Origin: an uncultured bacterium
Lineage (GTDB): Bacteria; Patescibacteriota; Minisyncoccia; Phycocordibacterales; DATDWN01
DNA: 64,000 nucleotides
Reading direction: 5' to 3'
NCBI GenBank assembly: GCA_903861205.1
Contig: CAIOTC010000022.1
Span: forward strand, 25-64,024
Positions 52,159 to 64,000 of this stretch are shown piece after piece (the first letter of the stretch is position 1; every line of letters starts with the position of its first letter). The notes under the pieces are model-generated. The model was not told the DNA's origin. It worked only from the letters and a program-made list of their open reading frames with translations, and made no database searches. The translations under genes were made by a program, and so were the position numbers.

Positions 52159-53007
52159 ATGCAAGCAAAGAAATCACTGGGACAACATTTTTTGAAGTCA
52201 CAAAAAGCCATTGAAACGATGGTGAAAACTTCTGGCGCACAGACCGGTGATTTGGTGTTGGAAATTGGGCCGGGAATGGGGGTTTTGACGGAAGCGCTTT
52301 TGCAGGCTGGTGCAAGCGTGGTGGCAGTAGAAAAAGATGATTTGCTCATTCCTGTTTTGGAAGAGAAGTTTGAGAAAGAAATAAAATCTGGACAACTGAA
52401 ATTGATTCACGATGATATTTTAAATTTTGACGTGTCAAAGGTGCCCTTTGGCGGTTCCGAATTGCCAAGGGGCACCCTTGACACTTATAAACTTGTAGCA
52501 AATATTCCATATTACATTACCGGACAAATTATCAGAATATTTTTGGAAGCGGAAAATCAGCCGGAGTCGATGACTTTGCTCGTCCAAAAAGAAGTGGCCG
52601 AGAGAATCGTGGCTCGTGACGAAAAAGAAAGTTTGCTTTCGCTTTCGGTCAAAGCCTACGGCACGCCGAAATATGTTGAGAAAGTCCCACGCGGAGCTTT
52701 CGCTCCGGCACCGAACGTCGATTCGGCCATCATTCACATTTCAAACATTTCCAAAAATAATTTTCGCAAGAACGGTTCTTGCGAAAAATGTGAAAAAGAA
52801 TTTTTTGAGTTGATCCATGCCGGATTCGCTCACAAACGTAAAATGCTTTTGCCAAACCTCTCCTCGCTTTACGCAAAAGACGCGCTTTCGCGCGCCTTCG
52901 CAGAATGTAAACTTGATGTCAAATGCCGAGCAGAAGACGTTCCTCTCCAAAAATGGTTTGAACTTCTGCGAGAACTGTTCTCGCAAGAAGAAATTATTGA
53001 ACGGTAA
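52159..53007 (+). CDS. rsmA: 16S rRNA (adenine1518/1519-N6)-dimethyltransferase RsmA/KsgA
   Basis: LGQHFL..., VLEIGPGMGVLTEAL, NIPYYITGQI. It contains an in-frame 63 bp palindrome (52432-52494). Confidence 0.85.
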   Translation: MQAKKSLGQHFLKSQKAIETMVKTSGAQTGDLVLEIGPGMGVLTEALLQAGASVVAVEKDDLLIPVLEEKFEKEIKSGQLKLIHDDILNFDVSKVPFGGSELPRGTLDTYKLVANIPYYITGQIIRIFLEAENQPESMTLLVQKEVAERIVARDEKESLLSLSVKAYGTPKYVEKVPRGAFAPAPNVDSAIIHISNISKNNFRKNGSCEKCEKEFFELIHAGFAHKRKMLLPNLSSLYAKDALSRAFAECKLDVKCRAEDVPLQKWFELLRELFSQEEIIER

Positions 53008-54496
53008 TCGTTACTATACTGGTCATCCCGTTGTACGTCACGGCGATCGTTGCTGTGCCTTTTGAGACCGCCATAACTTGACCGCTGTGATCGGCGCTTG
53101 CGGCGTACGGATTGAATGTGACCATTTTGGCCACGGCCGGATTGCTTGAAATCCAGCTGGCTTGCGTTGTAATGGCCGACAAAGAACCTCCTGTCGTAGA
53201 ATTCTGCCAGGCTAAAAATTGGTAAGCGCTTCCGACCGACAGTGTGATGCTCGATGGCTGGACCAAAATATTTCCGTTGGTCGTCGCTCCTCCCGGCGAT
53301 GATGTATTACACGACGCTTTGCCGTTTATGAACGCTCTCGTGCTGGAACCAACATAACCCGTCCCGGCAGTCAAACCAAGTGGTGTCAAAATCTGGTCAG
53401 CATATTTTTCCTGGTAGGCAACAACAGCCTGATAAACAGCGTCATCGAATGTGCTTTGCGACTGAGGTAAAAGCCCTTCTCCGGCCAAAACGCCTGTTAA
53501 ATATGTTACGGCTGTTCCACTGTCACCTTTTTGGAGGTCGGATGTCAGAGGAATGCACGACGTTGAACCAGATGTTGAACTATTTGTAGTCGCAGGGGAT
53601 GGTGGCACATATTGGCTGAGCTGGCCCTGTAAATCGGCCAGTTGTTTTTTGTACGTGGCAATCATATTGCTCACATAATTCGTCGTGGCTTGTTGCGCAG
53701 TTGATGCGTTGGTCACGACAACAGGCGTCGTCTGGTTTCCGCCAGTCGTAATGCCCGAACCGCTTGGATTTATAGCTGCGCCGTTGGAAAAACTACCTTT
53801 GGCGCCTGTCATATCGGTCACCCAGTTGGTGTAAGCGTTTTGGGACAAATTACCTCCGTAGCCAAAATATCTGTCCAGGGCGTATCCGGCATTAACCATC
53901 TCTCCATTTGGCAATTTGATATAGGCCTGATCGGGATTATAAGTTCCGCCGAGCAAATTTTGAGGAACCATAACCACCGTACCGCCCGTACATGCTGCCA
54001 GTTTTTGCGCGGCATCAGTTGTAGCATACCAAAGAGGGTTTATCGGCACTTCAGGCTGAACTCCAGTTTGAGGATCAGGAAAACTCAAGCCTTTTACGTC
54101 ATTCTGGAGATAATTACTCGATGATCCACTGAAATTGCAGCTAACACCGTCAACCGGCGCAATAGTTATCGTGCCAGTCCCGCCATTTGAGCCGTTGTTT
54201 ACGGGCGGTAAAGTTGCGCAAGCATTGTAACAATTCGAAACGGTGTAAGCGCCCTGGCCAGTCGGATCAAGTTCGCATGAGTTGCCGGTGCATTTGTAGC
54301 GCACGGGAATCGGTGAACCGGCCACGCAGGAATTGTTGCAGGTGGCGGTGGAATACGGGCCATAGCCGGAAATAGCAGTGCATTGACCTCCAACGCAAGC
54401 ATAATCAGCATGAGTTAATGTTGGTAAAACAAATAAAAAGACTAAACTTAACGAAAATAAAATAAAATATTTTTTCATATGCACATATTGTATCAT
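52994..54496 (-). CDS. Secreted protein with a Cys-rich N-region, a peptidoglycan-binding (PG_binding_1-like) domain and a C-terminal Big_2 Ig-like domain
   Basis: Signal peptide MKKYFILFSLSLVFLFVLPTLTHA; LQKGDSGTAVTYLTGVLAGEGLL...AVYQAVVAYQEKY; the C-terminus ...AITTQASWISSNPAVAKMV...ATIAVTY.. is Big_2-like. Confidence 0.65.
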   Translation of the reverse strand: MIQYVHMKKYFILFSLSLVFLFVLPTLTHADYACVGGQCTAISGYGPYSTATCNNSCVAGSPIPVRYKCTGNSCELDPTGQGAYTVSNCYNACATLPPVNNGSNGGTGTITIAPVDGVSCNFSGSSSNYLQNDVKGLSFPDPQTGVQPEVPINPLWYATTDAAQKLAACTGGTVVMVPQNLLGGTYNPDQAYIKLPNGEMVNAGYALDRYFGYGGNLSQNAYTNWVTDMTGAKGSFSNGAAINPSGSGITTGGNQTTPVVVTNASTAQQATTNYVSNMIATYKKQLADLQGQLSQYVPPSPATTNSSTSGSTSCIPLTSDLQKGDSGTAVTYLTGVLAGEGLLPQSQSTFDDAVYQAVVAYQEKYADQILTPLGLTAGTGYVGSSTRAFINGKASCNTSSPGGATTNGNILVQPSSITLSVGSAYQFLAWQNSTTGGSLSAITTQASWISSNPAVAKMVTFNPYAASADHSGQVMAVSKGTATIAVTYNGMTSIVTITVQ

Positions 54497-54531
54497 TTTT
54501 TCTTGCTCCGCATGATATACTTATACACAAC

Positions 54532-55371
54532 ATGCCGGAAACAAACACCCGAAAAATTTTTGTTGTGCTTATCATTTGCCTGGCTATCGTGGCATCAGTG
54601 GCCATTTGGCAATGGCGAGCAAACTCGGCAACGTCGGAAACTCCAGCAAACACCGCCGACGTTGTTTCTGACAACTCAAACACAGACAACGCCAACTCCG
54701 CCGCGCAAAACTGGCAGGGAATTTTGTCGAATATAAAAAGCGACACCACGTCCGTTTTGGCGAACAATGACACGACAAATCCAACAGACGGAACATTGAC
54801 CGCCCAAATGGCCCAGGACTTTTTCTCCCAATATCTCGCTTTGAAACAAAACAACGGCACAGTCACGGCTGATGAAGCCAACCAAATCGCTCAAAGCACA
54901 CTGACTGGCGCAGCCTACACCAACGCCACCGGCGTCCAATATACGGCCAAGGATCTGCATATAAACGCGCAAACAAGCAGGGAGATCGTGCAGAAATATC
55001 ATGACGTTATAAACACAAGCCTTAAAAACAGAGCATTGAAAAATAAAGTTGACCCCCTTGCAATTCTCAACAGCGCGGTGAAAAACGGAAGCACTGCTGA
55101 CTTGGCAGAACTCAACCCTCTTATTGTAAATTTCAAAGGCGTTGTTTCAGATCTTGCCAGTATGTCAGTGCCAGCCGACGCCACCCAAGTCCATTTGGAT
55201 TTTCTAAACGCTTACAGCAATATTTTGGCCAATTTAGAATCAATGAAACTGACATTCTCCGACCCGGTTAAAAGTTTTGCCGCAGTCAGCCAATACAAAC
55301 AACACCTAGCAGATTTGCAAACTGCCGTGCAAAAAATTGACGCATATTTTTTGGCAAAATTAAAAAGTTAA
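54532..55371 (+). CDS. Membrane-anchored hypothetical protein (N-terminal TM helix, extracytoplasmic domain)
   Basis: 279 aa. N-terminus IFVVLIICLAIVASVAIW. Confidence 0.45.
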   Translation: MPETNTRKIFVVLIICLAIVASVAIWQWRANSATSETPANTADVVSDNSNTDNANSAAQNWQGILSNIKSDTTSVLANNDTTNPTDGTLTAQMAQDFFSQYLALKQNNGTVTADEANQIAQSTLTGAAYTNATGVQYTAKDLHINAQTSREIVQKYHDVINTSLKNRALKNKVDPLAILNSAVKNGSTADLAELNPLIVNFKGVVSDLASMSVPADATQVHLDFLNAYSNILANLESMKLTFSDPVKSFAAVSQYKQHLADLQTAVQKIDAYFLAKLKS

Positions 55372-55416
55372 AAAATTTTACTTTTCAACAGAGCACGCTG
55401 GGATTTTAAATGAGTA

Positions 55417-57066
55417 TTGATATATAATATAAGTGCGGTAATGTCTTTTTTAAAAATGACACACTATTTGAAATATAAAATAATTTTGGGCGCTGTTTGT
55501 TTATCTTTTTTATTTGTTTTTTTGCCTCAAAAAGCTAACGCGCAATTTGGTATACCTGTTGAAGATTACGATGTGGAAATAAACACCAGCTTCATGGCTG
55601 TTGACACATTTGATATCGCCGTTGCAACAGATATTACTGCAGGAGCTTCGGTTGATACGGCAGTAAACACGAGCGCAAACACATGGGCTAAAGAGTTTCT
55701 GGGTGACGGGGTGGCCAACTTCATTGCCAAAATGATTGTAAAACAATTAACCGCCCAAACGGTTAATTGGATCAATTCCGGTTTCAAAGGCAACCCGGCT
55801 TTCGTGACCAACCCCGAAGGCTTTTTCCTCAACGTCGGCGACCAAATGGCGGCCGATTTTCTGACCAACACTTCACTAAACGGCCTTTGCAGTCCTTTCC
55901 AAGCTAAAATCCGTTTGGCTCTGGTTAAAAATTACCTGGCCGAAACAAATAAAAATTATTCTTGTACCCTCGGCCGACTTGAACAAAATTTTGAAAACTT
56001 CGCCAACAATTTCGACCAGGGAGGCTGGGACGGCTGGTTTACCATGACTCAAACAACCCAAGGCAATCCGTATGGGGCGTATCTCGACACCAAGGATCAA
56101 CTGTCAATCAACCTTGGTAATCAGGCAATAAAATATCAAAACCAACTAAACTGGGGCAAGGGCATTTTGTCTTACGAAAAATGCAAGAAGGGGGCGACAA
56201 TAATAAATCCTGCCAGAACAGTTGACAACGCCATTGACCCGTCACAAGATCCAAATTCGCCAACAAACTTACAGAGACAAAATATTGTTAATTATCAGAA
56301 TGCCATAGATAAAGCCAAGAAAGCCTACCAGGCTCTAACATTGAAAACAACTCCAGTTGCCACTGCAGCAGAACTCAACGCGGCGCAAGCGGCTATAAAC
56401 CAAGCTCAAACAAATTTTGATAATTACAGAGCGGATCATGGAATAAGCGATGAGCAGTTAAATTCCACACTAACTAATATTGACAGTGGTTTGGGAGAAG
56501 GAGATTGTGCACCAAGCGATAAAGAAACGGTTACACCTGGAAGCGTCATCAGCAATCAGTTGGACAGCGCTCTTGGTCAAACATGGGGTGAGCTCGTTAG
56601 TGCAGACGAAATAAACGAAATCGTCAGTGCTCTCATGACCCAAATGATTAGCCATGTTGTTGGCGGAATAGGAGATGGTTTGAGAAGTTTAAGCCAAAGC
56701 GATTCGTCATCGAATTCAAATACGGGACGAACCCTAATGCAACAACTTGTTGATAGCACGGCTTCAACGTCACCGGAAACAACCAGCTTTAACAAAGGCG
56801 CAAACAGCTTAATACCGTCAAATTTGGGTGGAAGCGCAAATCCTACTCCGACAGCAGACACCCCTTCCAGGACAGATACCCAAAATAAATTACATTGCGA
56901 TTCATTATCAGATCCATCTTGTAATCAAAACAGTTCAGGAAGTGGTAGTGGTGCACCTTCAACTTACTGCCTCAATAATACCGGTGATTACTATTGCTCA
57001 ACATACAACGGTCATGCTAGTTGCAACGTAACACCACCAGGCATTGATCCAAATTGCATACCATAG
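55417..57066 (+). CDS. Exported hypothetical protein (549 aa) with signal peptide ...LSFLFVFLPQKANAQ
   Basis: Signal peptide plus an S/T/N/Q-rich surface-type protein ending with a Cys-rich tail. Confidence 0.45.
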   Translation: MIYNISAVMSFLKMTHYLKYKIILGAVCLSFLFVFLPQKANAQFGIPVEDYDVEINTSFMAVDTFDIAVATDITAGASVDTAVNTSANTWAKEFLGDGVANFIAKMIVKQLTAQTVNWINSGFKGNPAFVTNPEGFFLNVGDQMAADFLTNTSLNGLCSPFQAKIRLALVKNYLAETNKNYSCTLGRLEQNFENFANNFDQGGWDGWFTMTQTTQGNPYGAYLDTKDQLSINLGNQAIKYQNQLNWGKGILSYEKCKKGATIINPARTVDNAIDPSQDPNSPTNLQRQNIVNYQNAIDKAKKAYQALTLKTTPVATAAELNAAQAAINQAQTNFDNYRADHGISDEQLNSTLTNIDSGLGEGDCAPSDKETVTPGSVISNQLDSALGQTWGELVSADEINEIVSALMTQMISHVVGGIGDGLRSLSQSDSSSNSNTGRTLMQQLVDSTASTSPETTSFNKGANSLIPSNLGGSANPTPTADTPSRTDTQNKLHCDSLSDPSCNQNSSGSGSGAPSTYCLNNTGDYYCSTYNGHASCNVTPPGIDPNCIP

Positions 57067-57072
57067 AAATAA

Positions 57073-59430
57073 ATGAAAAAGTTTTTAATTTTCAGTTTAA
57101 TATTGATTCTCCTTGTCGGTGTTTTTGCACCGAGTGGGGTTGCATTTAGCGCGCCAGTTCCAGGCGGGGGCTCAGGCGGATACACCACAAACACGAATGG
57201 AACTGTTAATCAAAATGCCCAAAGCAATACCACTTCAAATCTATCCGCGATAATTATGGGTGCCCTCAGCGGTATATCTTATTTTATTCTTACCGCTATG
57301 GGCTGGCTTCTTTGGCTTTCAGGTATGCTTCTCAACCTAGTCCTTGACCAAACCATAATAAAATTCACAGCAAATATCGGAACCATGACGGGTATAAATA
57401 CTGCATGGAAAGTTATCCGCGATGTCATGAACATGTTCTTTATTTTTATACTCCTCTACAACGCCATCATGATTATTATCAGCCAGAAAAACAGAGGCGA
57501 CATCCAAAAAATTGTCGGTGGTATTGTCATCACGGCGCTTCTCATAAATTTCAGTATGTTCTTCACCAAAGTAATTATCGATGCTTCAAACATTGCCACA
57601 ATCGGATTTTATAATTCAATAATTAATGCCGGACAATCAACAGTCATAACTACTGGTACTGATTCTTCAGGGAATCCATTAACATCAAATTTGAGAATGG
57701 GGATTTCCGGCGCTTTCGCAAATGCTCTGCATATAACCAGTTTTTATTCTTCAAACGGCATAGCGAATCAACCCGCGCCGTCTTCAATGGTTATAATTTA
57801 TCTTGGAGGTGCTATTCTTTTTCTCATTGTGGCATTTGTTCTATTCGCAATAGCAGCAATGTTTGTTATTAGGTATGTCGCATTCATACTTCTACTAATG
57901 TTTTCACCTCTCGGTTTTATTGGATTTGGTTTGCCACAATTAAAAGGAGCTCAAGACGATTGGTGGAAAATACTTAAAGGTCAAGCGATTTTTGCGCCAC
58001 TATATATGTTTCTGACATGGGTAATTCTGACGCTCATGGGCAGTGATGGATTTATTCCAAAATCTGGCGCACTGGCAGACATTAATAATGCCGCTGATCC
58101 GACTGCGCAAATGGGAGCCATTGCACTCATAATAAACTTCGCGGTTATTATCATATTGATTATTTTCTCACTGACAAAATCGAAGGAGTACGCCGAGCAG
58201 GGTTCAAAATATCTCAGCCAAGCCACTGGCAAACTGACCGCCTTCGCTGGCGGGGTAGCAATGGGGGGCAGCGCGGCAATTATGAGAAATACAGCCGGGA
58301 GATATGCGAACAACAAAGCCAACGACCAGGATTTGAAAGATCGTGCTGCTAAGGGTGACAAACTTGCTCAGTTGCAGTTGAAAACTTACAGGGCGGCTGC
58401 AGCAGGAAGTTTTGACTTGAGAAGAAGCTCTGCAGGTGAACAAATAGCGAAAAGTACTGGCGTAAACTTCGGAAAAGGAATTCCATTTAATGAAAAATCT
58501 GGACAAGGTGGATTCAAGAAAGCAAAAGAAGAAAAAGCAAAGAAAGAACAAGAATATGCAAAATCCCTAAAACCTTCTGACGAAGAATACGAAATCGCAA
58601 AAGAAAAAGATGCTGAAATAAAAGCCGCACAGGCAAAACTAAAAGACGCAGGATTTATTGCTGAAGAAAAAAGAAGAAAAGATGGTGAGTTAAATTCTGA
58701 AAAATACAAAAATTCAGAAATGTATTTGAATGCAGAAAAAGAAAAAACAGAAAACGAAGCAAATGAAGCTAAGGTGATTACGGAAAAAGAAAAACAAGCA
58801 AAACTTGACGCAGAATTGAAAGAGATTGAGAAGTTAAAACAAAGTGCATCATATCTTCTCGACCAACAGAAACGAAAAGAAATTGATGATAATATTTCAG
58901 CAAAAAAACGAGAGATTGAGGACCAAAATGAAATAATATCAAAATTAAAAGAGAGTATAGAAAAAAATAGTGTAGCGACCAAAGAGCGTCAAAAATATGA
59001 GAATGAATGGAAGAGCAAGGATAAAAGTGATTTGGAAGAATTGGCAAAACAAGAAGCTAATAATGAAAAAGAGTTAGAAAATATTTGGAAAGAACGCAAG
59101 AATAATTATGCCGACAGCGTTGAAAATGCGTGGATGAAACGATATTCTATGACTATTCTTGGTGGTTTGGCGGGTGCCGCGTTGGGGGGGCCTATCGGTG
59201 CTGGGGTTGGCGCCGCAGTAGGCAAATCATTCGGTGGAACAAAAGCTGAGCAGGAACATATAGCCAGAAAAATAAGGAATGAAACGGGAAAGAAAAAAGA
59301 AATGACAAAAAAGGAAAAGGCTGAATTAAGAAAAAAATTGGATAAACTTGAAGACAAAGACAGTGATGAGGCGAAAGAGATAAAGAAAAAACTTGGTTGG
59401 GATGAAGAAGATAAAGAACTAGAAGAATAA
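57073..59430 (+). CDS. Polytopic membrane protein, VirB6/TrbL-like by topology, with a roughly 330 aa K/E-rich coiled-coil C-terminal tail
   Basis: Signal peptide, then at least 6 TM helices over about 400 aa, then a charged helical tail (KAKEEKAKKEQEYAKS...). Placement is within the T4SS-like gene neighbourhood. Confidence 0.45.
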   Translation: MKKFLIFSLILILLVGVFAPSGVAFSAPVPGGGSGGYTTNTNGTVNQNAQSNTTSNLSAIIMGALSGISYFILTAMGWLLWLSGMLLNLVLDQTIIKFTANIGTMTGINTAWKVIRDVMNMFFIFILLYNAIMIIISQKNRGDIQKIVGGIVITALLINFSMFFTKVIIDASNIATIGFYNSIINAGQSTVITTGTDSSGNPLTSNLRMGISGAFANALHITSFYSSNGIANQPAPSSMVIIYLGGAILFLIVAFVLFAIAAMFVIRYVAFILLLMFSPLGFIGFGLPQLKGAQDDWWKILKGQAIFAPLYMFLTWVILTLMGSDGFIPKSGALADINNAADPTAQMGAIALIINFAVIIILIIFSLTKSKEYAEQGSKYLSQATGKLTAFAGGVAMGGSAAIMRNTAGRYANNKANDQDLKDRAAKGDKLAQLQLKTYRAAAAGSFDLRRSSAGEQIAKSTGVNFGKGIPFNEKSGQGGFKKAKEEKAKKEQEYAKSLKPSDEEYEIAKEKDAEIKAAQAKLKDAGFIAEEKRRKDGELNSEKYKNSEMYLNAEKEKTENEANEAKVITEKEKQAKLDAELKEIEKLKQSASYLLDQQKRKEIDDNISAKKREIEDQNEIISKLKESIEKNSVATKERQKYENEWKSKDKSDLEELAKQEANNEKELENIWKERKNNYADSVENAWMKRYSMTILGGLAGAALGGPIGAGVGAAVGKSFGGTKAEQEHIARKIRNETGKKKEMTKKEKAELRKKLDKLEDKDSDEAKEIKKKLGWDEEDKELEE

Positions 59431-59433
59431 AAG

Positions 59434-60222
59434 ATGGACGAACAAACATTAAAACAAATGCCAGAATATGTGCAAAAACTCCCGAAAGAAGTGCGAGATT
59501 TTGTCTTTGACGGAGTTTGGGAAAGCAGAACAACAGAAATCGCAACAAAATATTCTTTGAACGAAAGCCAGACTGACACATTCATTAACAAAGTTTTATA
59601 CATTTTGATTGGGCTGGAAAATCCGGATGATTTTCTCAATTCAACAATTTCAGAGTTGAATATTTCGCGACTTTTAGCGACACAGATGATGGAAGAGATT
59701 GAAAAAAGAGTTTTTGAGTATGCAATAAATGAAATAGAAAAAAATAAAGTGCCGGAAGCGTCAAAGAAAACCTTCGACGCCAATGCTGACACCGAACCGG
59801 AAATTCCAGAGGTGCGACCGGAAATAACGCCCATGGTAGAGGGAGGCGAGAGTGTTCACACCAATCCGCCACCAGTTGAAACTCCAAAACCAGAAGTGGC
59901 AAGGACGGCCCTTGCCACTCCAGCTCCGAAACCAATTCCACAAGCGCCGGATAATTTACCGGGAGTTGAGCTTCCCAGTGCCGAGCGTCCCGGTGCCGAT
60001 GTTGCCGCTGCGCCTGCGGCACCGTCCCCCAATCCCGCTTCCGAGGTCGAACCCGAAAAAACTTTCATTGGTTCGGATTTCTTGCAGAAACCAGTTTCGC
60101 CCGAGGAGTTACCTCCGGTGTCCGACCCGAAGTCAGCACCCGAGGAAACTCCTCCGGCCATACCTACACCTCCTACTCCGCCTAAACACACTGTAGATCC
60201 ATACCGCGAACCAATTGAATAA
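59434..60222 (+). CDS. Hypothetical protein with a Pro-rich low-complexity C-terminal half
   Basis: 262 aa. Its start lies 4 nt after the stop of the upstream gene. Confidence 0.4.
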   Translation: MDEQTLKQMPEYVQKLPKEVRDFVFDGVWESRTTEIATKYSLNESQTDTFINKVLYILIGLENPDDFLNSTISELNISRLLATQMMEEIEKRVFEYAINEIEKNKVPEASKKTFDANADTEPEIPEVRPEITPMVEGGESVHTNPPPVETPKPEVARTALATPAPKPIPQAPDNLPGVELPSAERPGADVAAAPAAPSPNPASEVEPEKTFIGSDFLQKPVSPEELPPVSDPKSAPEETPPAIPTPPTPPKHTVDPYREPIE

Positions 60223-60263
60223 TAAAACAAAAAGACGCAAAAGCGTCTTTTTGTTTTATTATT
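60222..60263 (+). terminator. Strong rho-independent terminator (18 bp stem)
   Basis: aataaaacaaaaagacgcaaaagcgtctttttgttttatt. Confidence 0.7.
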
Positions 60264-60488
60264 CCCCCACCCTCGCAGAATAGTCCAAACATCTTCCACA
60301 GGGTTTGTGACGTGGTCTACGGCGCAAAGCCGTGTCGGTCAAACGGGTTTAGTCACTTTAGTGAAAATAAATTCACAACCACTTGACCCAAGTCGTATTA
60401 CCAGTTTGGCTGACGATACGACACTGTAATGATTTTATATTATCAAATTGTAGAATTTGTGCAAATATTCTGTTAAAATTAAAGTGAT

Positions 60489-60707
60489 ATGAGAGAAGTC
60501 AAAACTATAACAAAAAATTTTTTAGATTGGATAAAAATAAAGGAATTCTTACACTTCAAAAAAAATCCTGCTGGTTTTGAGACGAGCGCACCTTTGTCAC
60601 AAGCCAGAACAATTTCTTCCAAAAGACTTGTTAGGCTGATTGATAAGATGAGTAGTGATTCTTTCAAAGAATTAAAAACAGCCCTAAATAAGGCTATTTT
60701 TAAGTGA
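60489..60707 (+). CDS. Small hypothetical protein (72 aa)
   Basis: ORF only. Confidence 0.25.
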   Translation: MREVKTITKNFLDWIKIKEFLHFKKNPAGFETSAPLSQARTISSKRLVRLIDKMSSDSFKELKTALNKAIFK

Positions 60708-60793
60708 TTGCACTCTCACTTTCGTGAGAGCGATTGCCCCCGAAGGGATTTATGAATAAAGTATATCAACTCAAAGTGAAAAGTCAATGAGGT

Positions 60794-61264
60794 GTGGATA
60801 AGAAAAATGAGCTAAAATACAACTATATGAAATATCAAGTTCCACAATTCATCGAAATAGAAGACAAAATTATCGGGCCTTTGACGATCAAGCAGTTCGT
60901 TTACCTGGCCGGGGGAGCGGGAATGTGCTTTATCGCTTACCGATTTTTACCATTCCTCATTGCTATCGTTCTGATGGCAGTTATTATCGCTTTGTCACTG
61001 GCGCTGGCTTTTTACAAAGTCAACAATCGAAATTTCATCGAACTTTTGGAATCAATGTTTAATTTTTACACCAAAAGCCGGCTGTATATTTGGAAAAAGG
61101 AAGTTAAACAAATATCAAGAAATAAGGCGCCAGCTACGACAGCACTGGAACAAATATTCGTTCCAAAACTTTCCGAAAGCAAATTGAAAGAATTGTCGTG
61201 GAGTTTGGACATTAATGAGAACCTGAATCCATTAACGGGAGAGGAGGGAAAGAATACCAAATAA
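60794..61264 (+). CDS. Small two-TM membrane protein, a possible VirB3/PrgI-like T4SS component. It contains the 22 nt coding repeat.
   Basis: LTIKQFVYLAGGAGMCFIAYRFLPFLIAIVLMAVIIALSLALAF. It is positioned upstream of the VirB4-like gene. Confidence 0.4.
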   Translation: MDKKNELKYNYMKYQVPQFIEIEDKIIGPLTIKQFVYLAGGAGMCFIAYRFLPFLIAIVLMAVIIALSLALAFYKVNNRNFIELLESMFNFYTKSRLYIWKKEVKQISRNKAPATTALEQIFVPKLSESKLKELSWSLDINENLNPLTGEEGKNTK

Positions 61265-61705
61265 TTTTCAATTTCCAATTCTCAATTTTCAAACAATGAA
61301 TAAATTTTCAATGTATGAATTACGATTTAGAAAATAGGACAAGAGTTTTTTCAAAAAATATTCTTTGTTTTTGCAAGAAAATAAAAATTAATTATTTAAA
61401 CTCAAACATAATTTCTCAATTACTTAGATCGTCTACCAGTGTTGGAGCAAATTATTGCGAAGCAAACAACGCTAGTTCCAAAAATGATTTTAGAAATAAA
61501 ATTTATCTTTCAAGGAAGGAAATCCAAGAAACTGAGTACTGGCTAGATTTACTGGCAGAAATTTGTGAGATAAACGACGAATTACAAAAATTGCAGAAGG
61601 AAACGAGGGAACTTATACTGATTTTTAATAAGATTACTTTTTCATTGAAAAATTGAATCATTGGAAATTTTTTGAAAATTGAGAATTGGAAATTGAAAAT
61701 TTTTT
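61262..61705 (+). mobile_element. Inverted-repeat-bounded element carrying a four-helix-bundle (23S rRNA IVS-type) protein gene. The inverted repeats (IRs) are about 40 bp each.
   Basis: Left aattttcaatttccaattctcaattttcaaacaatgaat; right attgaatcattggaaattttttgaaaattgagaattggaaattgaaaa, which is its reverse complement. A cargo-less copy of the IR pair is at 10047-10128. Confidence 0.55.
61315..61656 (+). CDS. Four-helix-bundle protein (TIGR02436 / 23S rRNA intervening-sequence protein family)
   Basis: ...ISQLLRSSTSVGANYCEANNASSKNDFRNKIYLSRKEIQETEYWLDL... Confidence 0.7.
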   Translation: MNYDLENRTRVFSKNILCFCKKIKINYLNSNIISQLLRSSTSVGANYCEANNASSKNDFRNKIYLSRKEIQETEYWLDLLAEICEINDELQKLQKETRELILIFNKITFSLKN

Positions 61706-61722
61706 TGTGCTATAATATTCAC

Positions 61723-62358
61723 ATGGCAGTTTCTTCAAAAGCAACACAGGAATTTGTGCCGATCAAAGAAGTGCGCGATGGAGTGGTTATTCTGAAAACC
61801 GGCTCGATGCGCGCGGTTGTTTTGGCCTCATCGCTGAATTTTTCTCTCAAATCGGACGACGAGCGCGAGGCTATCGTCAGCCAGTTCCAAGATTTTTTGA
61901 ACTCGCTCGATTTCGAAGTGGAAATTTCCATTCAGTCCCGTCGGCTGGATATACGGCCGTACATAGCCCTGCTGGAGGAACAGTACAAAAAACAACTTAA
62001 CGACTTGATGAAAATCCAGACGCGCGAATACATCGAGTTCATCAAAAAATTCACAGAGTCAACTAACATCATGACCAAAAGTTTCTTTGTCGTCGTGCCA
62101 TATGATCCGGCCATCATCGGCGGAGGAGCGGGCGGCGGAATTTTCCAAAAACAATCGGCCGAAGAAAAAGTTCAAGCCAAGCAAGCAACATTCGAAGAAA
62201 ACCGAACACAACTCGAGCAGAGAGTTTCTGTGGTGGAGCAAGGTTTGGTTCGCTCCGGAATCCGCGTCATCAGACTGGGAACCGAAGAAGTGATAGAGTT
62301 GTTCTATAAGATTTTCAATCCGGGGGATACGGAGAAACCAATCAAGGTTAGCAGTTAG
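61723..62358 (+). CDS. Hypothetical protein (211 aa), probably leaderless (tgcTATAAT ends 6 nt before the ATG), just upstream of the VirB4-like gene
   Basis: MAVSSKATQEFVPIKEVRDGVVILKTGSMRAVVLASS...GGGAGGG. No family assigned. Confidence 0.45.
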   Translation: MAVSSKATQEFVPIKEVRDGVVILKTGSMRAVVLASSLNFSLKSDDEREAIVSQFQDFLNSLDFEVEISIQSRRLDIRPYIALLEEQYKKQLNDLMKIQTREYIEFIKKFTESTNIMTKSFFVVVPYDPAIIGGGAGGGIFQKQSAEEKVQAKQATFEENRTQLEQRVSVVEQGLVRSGIRVIRLGTEEVIELFYKIFNPGDTEKPIKVSS

Positions 62359-62430
62359 AATATAGTAGTTAGCATTTAGGAAAAATGCCGATGCATTCAC
62401 CTAAATTCTACCTACTAACTACTAAATACT

Positions 62431-64000
62431 ATGTCATTTCTAGATTTTTTCAAAACAAAAAAGGAACCCGAGATTGGCTCGATTTTGCCTTCCGAAATTT
62501 ACGAGGCTGGCACTTTGGAACTGAAAGACATCATCGCTCCTAGCGCTTTGAAAATTTCACCGAAAGAAATCAATCTCGGAGAGAAAATCACCCGCAGTTT
62601 TTTCGTCATTTCATATCCGCGCTACCTCTCCGAAAGCTGGTTTGCACCCATTATCAACCTCGATAAAATTTTTGATGTTTCCATTTTCATTTCACCCATC
62701 GAAACGGCTCAAGTCCTGCGCACCTTCCAGAAAAAAGTGGCTGAGGTACAGAGCCAAATCAGCGTTCGAGAAAGCAAGGGCCTGGTTCGTGATCCGAAAC
62801 TCGATACCGCTTACCAAGATCTCGAAAACTTGCGCGATCAACTCCAACAAGCCCAGGAAAAACTTTTTGACGTCGGTCTGTACATGACTATATATGGCGA
62901 GAGTGAAGGTGAGTTGGACAAAACGGAATCCGAAATAAAATCCATTCTCGAGTCCAAAATGGTTTACGTCAAACCAGCCCTTTTCCAACAGGAGCAAGGC
63001 TTTCGAACCACTCTGCCCATCGGCACCGACGAACTGAAAGTTTACAGCAAAATGAATTCCTCGCCACTTTCGTCTCTTTTTCCATTCATTTCGTTTGACT
63101 TGACCTCCGACAAAGGCATTCTCTACGGCATCAACCGCCACAACTCGTCCTTGGTTCTTTTTGATCGATTTTCTTTGGAAAACTACAACTCGATCACCTT
63201 CGCTAAGTCCGGCGCCGGGAAGAGCGTAAAGGGGTCCGAGCCGGTGCTGATTAGAAAAAATGGTAGTATTTCGCTAGAAAAAATCGGACCGTTGGTAGAA
63301 AAAACGATTCGAAAACAAGGTAAAACAAAACTCGACGGTGAAATGGAGGGGGTGGTTGACCCAGGATTTGAAGTTTGGAGTTTTGATAAAGAATTGAAAG
63401 GTTCGTGGAGCAAAGTTTCTGTGGCAGCCCGCAAAGACGCTCCGAATATTTATTATAGTTTCAAAACTAAAAGCGGGCGAGAAATAACCACCACGGAAGA
63501 TCACAACATGCTTGTTTTACGTGATGGGCGAGTAAATGTCGCAAAAAGTACAGAAATAAAAGAAGGGGAATTCGTACCATTACCTCGCGCCGTTTCTTTT
63601 TCCGAAAACTCGCCGATAAAATTAAATCTTTTGGATTTTTTCAAAAACGAACCGCGAATGTATGTGACTGGCGTAGCTGATATTATTGCCAGAATTCACA
63701 AAGCATACTCGCGAGAAGCTATTGACGTAAAATATGACGCTTATTTACCAATGTATAAAAAAGGCAGACGTGTTCCTTTGGAATTCTTTAATAAACTTCT
63801 CAAAAAATCAGAAATTATACTAACAGACGAGAAAATATCATCGCTTAATATCACATCTAGAAATGGCAAGAGCAAATTGCCTGCACTTTTTACAGTTACA
63901 AAAGACCTTGGAACACTTCTGGGTTACATCAGCGCCGAAGGAACCATAAACCGTGACGCCATACATATTAGTAATATAGATGTGGATGTTTTGGTTATAA
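62431..64000 (+). CDS. VirB4/TrbE/TraC-like T4SS ATPase (partial, runs off the window end). The Walker A P-loop is interrupted by an intein with a LAGLIDADG-like homing-endonuclease motif.
   Basis: N-terminus ...LKDIIAPSALKISPKEINLGEKITRSFFVISYPRYLSESWFAPII is a VirB4-family N-domain pattern. Walker A FAKSGAGK at 63199-63222 is followed directly by an intein-like SVKGSEPVLIRKNGSISLEKIG (block A-like). Further intein-like motifs are TTTEDHNMLVL (block B TxxH) and LLGYISAEGTI. The frame is open to the window end. Confidence 0.6.
   Translation, partial: MSFLDFFKTKKEPEIGSILPSEIYEAGTLELKDIIAPSALKISPKEINLGEKITRSFFVISYPRYLSESWFAPIINLDKIFDVSIFISPIETAQVLRTFQKKVAEVQSQISVRESKGLVRDPKLDTAYQDLENLRDQLQQAQEKLFDVGLYMTIYGESEGELDKTESEIKSILESKMVYVKPALFQQEQGFRTTLPIGTDELKVYSKMNSSPLSSLFPFISFDLTSDKGILYGINRHNSSLVLFDRFSLENYNSITFAKSGAGKSVKGSEPVLIRKNGSISLEKIGPLVEKTIRKQGKTKLDGEMEGVVDPGFEVWSFDKELKGSWSKVSVAARKDAPNIYYSFKTKSGREITTTEDHNMLVLRDGRVNVAKSTEIKEGEFVPLPRAVSFSENSPIKLNLLDFFKNEPRMYVTGVADIIARIHKAYSREAIDVKYDAYLPMYKKGRRVPLEFFNKLLKKSEIILTDEKISSLNITSRNGKSKLPALFTVTKDLGTLLGYISAEGTINRDAIHISNIDVDVLVI

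Follow-up and report, generated by a model that had tools for sequence, protein, structure and literature searches.

The Walker A motif, or P-loop, is a classic intein site, at which the insertion falls between the Lys and the following Thr or Ser (Kelley et al. 2016, PMC5050341). Inteins are enriched in P-loops, including those of DnaB, MCM and RFC, and 21 inteins have been recorded in archaeal VirB11 (Novikova et al. 2016, PMC4760082). The same survey lists five cases in VirB4 (COG3451), from Firmicutes and Proteobacteria (its Table 3). Here we analyze a stretch of 64,000 nucleotides (the window) of contig CAIOTC010000022.1, from an uncultured bacterium of the Patescibacteria, or candidate phyla radiation (CPR), at the end of which the open reading frame (ORF) of a VirB4-like ATPase of a type IV secretion system (T4SS) is interrupted in its P-loop. 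Our analysis identifies with high confidence, at the Walker A Lys/Ser site of this ATPase (a slash within a sequence marks the splice junction here and below), a canonical class-1 intein that bears a LAGLIDADG endonuclease. The preliminary description of this DNA had proposed an intein at this point, accurately to the base, and had named P-loops as classic intein sites; both statements hold. Its remark that an intein in VirB4 would be unusual is overstated, since five VirB4/COG3451 inteins were already listed in 2016 and the site is the classic one. Neither the insertion site nor the VirB4 host family is new for inteins, and our literature search found no paper describing this VirB4 P-loop intein allele in CPR/Patescibacteria.

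Our comparison with the mycobacteriophage TerL1-a, DnaB-b, MCM-a and RFC-a inteins (PMC5050341, PMC4760082) reveals the same insertion between the Walker A Lys and a hydroxyl residue, which serves as the +1 nucleophile. These are likewise class-1 inteins with a His-Asn end (observed in the relatives of the present intein) in an oligomeric P-loop ATPase. By comparison, the host here is a CPR VirB4-like T4SS ATPase and the first intein residue is Ser (Thr in three relatives); the comparison concerns insertion site and host type. The VirB4/COG3451 inteins (PMC4760082) occupy the same host protein family in other phyla and are likened to the present one by host family alone.

The insertion point is well defined. 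Translated from position 62431, the junction reads ...NYNSITFAKSGAGK/SVKGSEPVLIRKNGSISLEKIG..., and homology to VirB4 stops after GAGK. The NCBIfam model NF045971 (VirB4-like conjugal transfer ATPase, CD1110 family) matches residues 28–267 on model positions 184–431 (E=3e-42), the match ending two residues past the Walker A Lys. With just model positions 184–431 in view, the fragment reaches 144.9 bits (cut-off 325), whereas the full-length intein-bearing relative L011 passes the CD1110 cut-off despite the insert (347 bits against 325). Orthologs of the ATPase number in the thousands; the named ones among the top 120 mostly bear the labels Patescibacteria, Paceibacterota, Minisyncoccia or Zambryskibacteria, and the top orthologs, called VirB4, TraC or CD1110-family in their sources, are 600–625 aa long and share 81–91% identity with residues 1–264 of the window ORF. 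Most of these close orthologs (P0006–P0120, N-extein identity 81–91%) have no intein. The nearest of the intein-less proteins (P0006–P0010, 603–605 aa) are 91% identical to the window N-extein, and their P-loop is unbroken (GAGKSYTVKLEIL; GAGK-SYTVKLEIL), as in P0006, which reads ...NYNSITFAKSGAGKSYTVKLEILRTLMFDVDV... without a break. Syntenic intein-less orthologs read FAKSGAGK-SYTVKLEILRTLMF, and the exteins of intein-bearing relatives rejoin to the same sequence, so that the P-loop is restored in an extein-only comparison, the check that the preliminary description had proposed.

The same boundary is seen in the DNA. When the window is aligned by blastn with L080, a locus without the intein, the match stops at base 63221, the insertion point, where the L080 allele reads ...GCCAAATCTGGTGCCGGCAAA/TCTTATACAGTTAAGCTAGAA.... 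The gene order of L080 (UvrD, KsgA, a 279-aa ORF, two large unknown ORFs, a 260-aa ORF, PrgI, TraC-like, VirB4) is that of the window. The Ser codon directly after GAGK is AGC or AGT (AGY) in the window and in the four relatives inspected (L009, L010, L011 and L039), whereas the Walker A or +1 Ser is encoded by TCN in L009, L010, L011, L039, L008 and three intein-less alleles. The two codon families thus place the boundary at Lys/Ser and assign the visible Ser to the intein. This agrees with the earlier proposal that Ser is the first intein residue, which is also borne out by the homology break and by the presence of Ser in 50 of 53 relatives. L001 and L002, assembled independently from the same population, have an identical junction. 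Coordinates of these and other features are collected in Table 1.

Table 1. Positions of the VirB4-like gene, its intein and neighboring features in the window
Feature	Position	Strand	Evidence or remark
500-aa ORF	52994-54496	-	
PrgI-family (VirB3-like) T4SS membrane protein gene	60794..61264	+	PF12666 PrgI 41.6 bits, cut-off 27
PF05635 cassette	61256-61708		
Inverted-repeat arms of PF05635 cassette	61256-61320, 61644-61708		
PF05635 ORF, 113 aa	61315-61656		upstream of TraC-like ORF
TraC-like ORF, VirB4 N-terminal domain, 211 aa	61723..62358	+	PF26593 (precomputed); NF045975 101-233, NF045971 2-117
Spacer hairpin	62356-62431		
VirB4-like ATPase ORF	start ATG 62431, open to window end (523 codons, no stop)	+	
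N-extein, VirB4-like ATPase aa 1-264	62431..63222	+	NF045971 match; 91% identity to intein-less orthologs
FAKSGAGK, residues 257-264	63199-63222	+	GAGK, first half of Walker A, 63211-63222
Intein, N-terminal 259 of ~663 residues	63223..64000	+	TIGR01445, family HMM, PI-PkoII match
Ser265, intein residue 1 (AGC)	63223-63225	+	predicted block A nucleophile for N-O acyl shift; Ser in 50/53 relatives
TTTEDHNMLVL	63487-63519	+	block B T-x-x-H (T91-E-D-H94, intein numbering) at 63493..63504
Variable linker between Hint N-lobe and endonuclease, intein residues ~126-225	63598..63897	+	least conserved segment
First LAGLIDADG motif, LLGYISAEGTI	63916..63948	+	catalytic acidic E239 at 63937-63939; G234, E239, G240 conserved family-wide

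Downstream of the junction the insert has the features of an intein N-terminal region. Ser265 is followed by VKGSEPVLIRKNGSISLEKIG, and the TIGR01445 (intein_Nterm) profile covers residues 266–362 (E=8.1e-13; 49.2 bits, cut-off 24.5). A family hidden Markov model (HMM) built from 42 full-length relatives matches the window with 371 bits (E=2e-112) over HMM positions 1–259 of 665; in a six-frame search with this model, the window holds no other copy of the family, such as might have accounted for assembly breaks. A phmmer search of the fragment against the PDB returns PI-PkoII (2cw7) at E=1.2e-13, followed by the Mja TFIIB and Pho CDC21 inteins. Judged by sequence, these HMM and PDB matches settle the fold family to which the insert would belong. 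An alignment of eight sequences (A1) shows the window to retain every conserved family residue that lies before its end. Within block B, T91, D93, H94 and N95 are invariant in A1 and at least 95% conserved among the 42 full-length inteins, which agrees with the earlier assignment of TTTEDHNMLVL to the block B TxxH. The motif and junction match is far beyond chance.

The endonuclease lies almost entirely beyond the window. The first LAGLIDADG motif, which the preliminary description had recognized as LAGLIDADG-like, aligns with LLGYYVSEG of PI-PkoII, and the 34 visible endonuclease residues are 68–82% identical to those of full-length relatives. Pfam LAGLIDADG models give no match to the window fragment, since the first motif alone is in view; the call therefore relies on the alignment to family-invariant columns and to PI-PkoII. 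The second motif, YFEGDGG, is outside the window; in relatives it is at least 95% conserved, and PF14528 scores 71–79 bits (P0127 and L011). The expectation that profiles would recognize both Hint and LAGLIDADG domains is thus borne out in part: TIGR01445, which covers the N-terminal part of Hint, exceeds its cut-off, whereas PF14890 falls 0.9 bit short and the Pfam LAGLIDADG models are silent on the fragment. Between the Hint N-lobe and the endonuclease, the variable linker shares 54–63% identity with the nearest relatives and aligns weakly with PI-PkoII residues 232–292; it may be a DNA-recognition region.

The remainder of the intein can be read from relatives. A scan of GTDB with one genome per species, using an alignment of eight intein N-parts as the query, recovers 59 loci, nearly all of them Patescibacteria (CPR) VirB4 genes with the identical insertion site, and 11 further metagenome loci carry the junction. 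Wherever the upstream side is readable, the intein match begins directly after G-x-G-K of a VirB4-like ORF (HerA-like in L056 and L060). At the other end, all 53 GTDB loci with both junctions readable have a C-terminal junction of the form [FY][VI]HN/S[YF], the HN being followed by Ser-Tyr/Phe-x-x-K, by which GAGKS is restored; in VirB4 hosts the extein goes on as ..K[LI]E... The three closest metagenome loci likewise have an HN/S junction, and the intein end in P0127, P0134, P0144 and L068–L070 reads ...VYDLTVDNE.FLAG..GMFVHN/S[YF]. The P0127 sequence opens within the endonuclease, where its LLGYISAEGTINRDAIHISNID matches the last residues of the window exactly, and runs to ...YVYDLTVDNEVFLAGTAGMFVHN/SYATKLEILRTLMF (...AGMFVHN), followed by a complete VirB4 C-terminal half.

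Intein length has a family mode of 657–670 aa (~663), so the window shows ~39% of the intein. Besides S1, T91, D93, H94, N95, G234, E239 and G240, conservation of at least 95% among the 42 full-length members extends, among others, to Y322, E324, G325, D326 and G327 of the second LAGLIDADG motif, S338, K339 and S340, V642, Y643, D644 and L645 of block F, and H662 and N663 of block G. The full-length intein of L011 scores 75.4 bits with Intein_splicing, 79 bits with LAGLIDADG_3 and 22.9 bits with TIGR01443 (cut-off 15.6), and also exceeds the TIGR01445 cut-off. As an observation apart, Thr is intein residue 1 in three of the 53 loci (L027, L042 and L064; GSGK/T...), with the normal HN/SY junction at the C-terminus. 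Thr is a rare N-terminal nucleophile among inteins. Shortened inteins are found in L062, L061, L034, L049, L055 and L064–L067; together with L044 and L059, these are candidate mini-inteins or decayed copies that may represent later stages of the homing cycle.

Several searches addressed the continuation of the window gene itself. P0127/L008 was considered as this continuation and rejected: the protein overlap is identical, but blastn gives no significant DNA alignment and synonymous differences are many, so that P0127/L008 comes from a different organism. An exact look-up of the upstream 211-aa protein returns short same-population contigs only, which end at or before the window end (L001 reaches intein residue 236). 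Neither the metagenome scan with the intein fragment (best identity 70%) nor the GTDB scan (best identity to the window intein 67%) yields a continuation, and a protein search with the C-terminal intein part of P0127 finds no same-population member. Every intein-bearing copy found in the protein database searched is a partial ORF; those that carry a source name are entered as 'hypothetical protein, partial', 'LAGLIDADG family homing endonuclease, partial' or 'TraG/VirB4 family ATPase, partial'.

Among solved structures, PI-PkoII, the intein endonuclease of the Thermococcus kodakarensis DNA polymerase (2cw7), is nearest by sequence, also for the full-length intein of L011 (E=4.6e-21). The two share the Hint plus LAGLIDADG architecture, and the match takes in the first LAGLIDADG motif as well as the Hint N-lobe, with good alignment in the latter only. 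This family is distinct from PI-PkoII in its host gene and domain of life, and is ~125 aa longer (~663 aa against the 537-residue 2cw7 chain), partly owing to a conserved ~200-aa stretch before block F. In L011 this stretch occupies intein residues ~421–620, between the LAGLIDADG core and block F, and contains invariant W507, W514 and N528; it belongs to no Pfam family and is covered by NCBIfam models of intein-containing archaeal RFC. The nearest relatives outside VirB4 are UvrB P-loop inteins from metagenomes (P0128, P0130 and P0131), which have the same domain order in a different host gene and are 28–31% identical over nearly the full length. P0128 (UvrB-like) follows the same Walker A insertion logic, GTGK/S...FVHN/TFT, with Thr as the +1 residue. 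These similarities suggest that one intein clade may be specialized in the Lys/Ser or Lys/Thr P-loop sites of different ATPases.

Selection and mobility were assessed among the relatives. For the closest full-length pair, L009 and L010, the ratio of nonsynonymous to synonymous substitution rates (dN/dS) is ~0.04 in Hint-N, ~0.08 in the endonuclease core and ~0.03 in Hint-C, compared with 0.02–0.03 in the exteins and 0.17–0.22 in two variable regions (linker ~0.22). In this single pair, purifying selection acts on every part of the intein, and the endonuclease of that lineage is maintained rather than decaying. Extein and intein identities correlate only loosely, with a Spearman coefficient of 0.45 over 903 pairs, and the intein is more similar than the extein in 43 pairs. 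L011 and L039 share 90% identity in the extein and 50% in the intein; for the window the respective values are 83% and 47% with L039, and 70% (N-extein) and 74% (Hint-N) with L070. This discordance fits horizontal homing. In addition, GC content falls from ~0.46 in the extein to 0.34–0.39 within the intein. Purifying selection, discordance, the GC drop, sporadic presence and shortened copies together form the picture expected of a homing cycle. As far as sequence comparison goes, a selfish homing element is the reading supported by the data, and of the two possibilities that the preliminary description had offered, a selfish element within the secretion system is the one favored.

By standard class-1 intein chemistry, the gene would be translated into a precursor of ~1270 aa with a split Walker A motif, which would therefore be unable to bind ATP properly. 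Ser1 would undergo an N-O acyl shift, the +1 Ser would take over the N-extein by transesterification, and Asn663 would cyclize with the help of His662, releasing the intein. A final O-N shift would then restore GAGK-SY... and a normal 603-aa VirB4 ATPase. The two-motif LAGLIDADG endonuclease, either free or still embedded, would cut intein-less VirB4 alleles at the sequence encoding GAGK/SY, and repair of the cut copies would bring the intein in by gene conversion (homing). Homing would explain both the sporadic distribution and the single identical site in many CPR lineages, and the intein would survive as a selfish element because its site tolerates no imprecise deletion.

Several observations weigh against a complete and functional homing intein in this gene. 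As the view ends at intein residue 259, everything from the second LAGLIDADG motif through blocks F and G to the +1 Ser and the C-extein is outside the window, and a downstream frameshift or truncation of the gene is possible. Pfam Intein_splicing (PF14890) gives the window fragment 34.9 bits against a gathering score of 35.8, a shortfall that truncation would lead one to expect. The dN/dS values are rough estimates, as dS is near saturation (0.7–1.5). Decay is observed in some relatives: the ORFs of L044 and L059 end inside the intein although the contig continues, and about ten loci have shortened inteins of 391–604 aa (391 aa in L062 and 522–604 aa in about nine others). Nevertheless, this copy is probably complete and functional downstream of the window.

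The alternative that survives best is a decaying intein, which still splices, as a working VirB4 would demand, while its homing endonuclease is inactive or truncated downstream, as at a late stage of the homing cycle. Such a state would resemble the shortened family members and the two ORFs that stop within the intein, and the endonuclease domain of the window is almost wholly out of view. In P0001, the closest relative (82% identity), identity drops to 27% over the last 30 aligned residues, inside the endonuclease region; this loss is read as a frameshift, but the contig has other signs of error. Set against these points, E239 of the first motif is intact, the visible endonuclease residues retain their similarity to full-length relatives, L009 and L010 show purifying selection on the core, and the modal length of the family is the full ~663 aa. 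We consider a decaying copy unlikely.

A further reading extends the selfish element beyond CPR. Two syntenic contigs from metagenome-assembled genomes (MAGs), labelled Micrarchaeota and 'archaeon', carry the same intein family (L056:2490-5489 and L060:2406-5483; 522–526 aa, 38–39% identity to the window intein). Their host is a HerA/DUF87-AAA_10 ATPase of ~480 aa, with the intein at GSGK/S...VHN/SYTVK; the neighboring PurD and transglutaminase-like genes are uninformative on archaeal origin. VirB4-like hosts with the intein are also found in L050 (labelled Altiarchaeota) and P0145 (labelled Heimdallarchaeota). These archaeal-labelled members may reflect either CPR–DPANN exchange or mis-binning. 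From the same-site members in these four loci, the family could be imagined to move between episymbiotic CPR and DPANN via the GxGK/SY(T or A)VK P-loop of VirB4/HerA-superfamily ATPases, and its long persistence in the CPR T4SS-like ATPase might stem from co-option as a splicing-dependent cell-contact switch. As MAG labels are weak evidence and nothing in the data supports the regulatory part, this proposal appears doubtful.

Regulation within CPR fares less well. A domesticated intein, whose conditional splicing (by redox state, temperature or host contact) would gate the T4SS-like machine of an episymbiotic CPR bacterium, would draw on the Walker A position, which should guarantee an inactive ATPase precursor, on the retention of the same site in at least 59 species, on purifying selection over the whole intein and on the argument of Novikova et al. 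(PMC4760082) that selection may favor keeping inteins in P-loops. Nothing seen here points specifically to conditional splicing, and with Ser1 and Ser+1 as nucleophiles a redox trap would lack its Cys pair. Moreover, most orthologs with an N-extein 81–91% identical (P0006–P0120) do without the intein, which indicates that the T4SS does not need it, and endonuclease conservation together with extein/intein discordance is the prediction of a selfish homing element. The post-translational control raised in the preliminary description thus finds no support beyond the trivial fact of a broken Walker A in the unspliced precursor, and a domesticated intein is highly improbable. A reading of the insert as a VirB4 accessory domain peculiar to this lineage, or as the product of an assembly that joined VirB4 to an unrelated gene, could appeal to the invisibility of the C-terminal junction in the window, but is effectively refuted already and deserves almost no credence, given that intein HMMs and solved intein structures match the insert, that the same junction occurs in the independent assemblies L001 and L002 as well as in 59 genome loci and 11 metagenome loci, and that in relatives VirB4 resumes exactly at the +1 Ser while syntenic orthologs cleanly lack the segment.

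The selfish intein resides in a T4SS-like cluster. Directly upstream of the ORF whose Walker A reads GAGK/(intein) are the T4SS neighbors, the PrgI/VirB3-like gene and the ORF for the VirB4 N-terminal domain. The PrgI gene occupies the equivalent position in the syntenic loci L079, L080 and L081 and marks the cluster. Compared with the 752-aa CD1110-family model, VirB4 is split into the 211-aa N-domain ORF and an ATPase ORF of ~603 aa. The same split is present in L079–L081 and is kept in all CPR relatives examined, with several genes intervening in L007; its conservation indicates a fixed arrangement and not a frameshift. Downstream of VirB4, T4SS_pilin-like genes are found in the relatives L008 and L079. 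Further upstream, the window contains four ORFs without a significant Pfam match, then KsgA, UvrD, an M23/LysM peptidase, a ComM-like Mg-chelatase ATPase and PNPase, as well as five tRNA genes at 24–30 kb. The locus is a chromosomal neighborhood with no obvious plasmid or integrative conjugative element.

Other elements of the region were also noted. The PF05635 ORF (of a four-helix-bundle family named '23S rRNA intervening sequence protein') lies exactly between the 65-nt arms of an inverted repeat with 80% complementarity, and the transcript of the cassette is predicted to form a single long stem around the ORF (–105 kcal/mol, z = –5.0). Its GC content is 0.28, compared with ~0.46 in the adjoining genes. 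The cassette is missing from the syntenic intein-less loci L079–L081, and homologous ORFs are scattered in ~12 other CPR T4SS loci. The whole resembles a compact mobile cassette, similar to an intervening sequence, that was inserted into the T4SS operon. The PF05635 gene was also considered as a sign of a diversity-generating retroelement, which was rejected, as positions 54000–64000 contain no direct repeats resembling a template and variable repeat. An imperfect 24-nt inverted repeat takes up the 72 nt that separate the TraC-like ORF from that of VirB4 (hairpin of –22 kcal/mol, z = –3.2); it could be a terminator, an attenuator or an insertion scar, and in L079 and L080 the two ORFs abut without a spacer. 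Lastly, the 500-aa ORF on the reverse strand, between KsgA and the 279-aa ORF, has no significant Pfam match and no counterpart at that place in L080.

The finding leaves knowledge of inteins and of T4SSs unchanged, the element being a real but ordinary selfish one. For annotation, it means that a CPR VirB4-like ATPase gene can be ~3.8 kb and not 1.8 kb long, owing to a P-loop intein of ~663 aa. The intein-bearing copies found in the protein database are partial, and some go under the name of a hypothetical protein or of a homing endonuclease, which may lead to miscounting of T4SS genes in reduced CPR genomes. To the classic P-loop inteins it adds a widely distributed allele, present at a single site in at least 59 species representatives, and, with full, shortened and truncated copies well sampled in one family, it allows the homing cycle to be studied in uncultured lineages.

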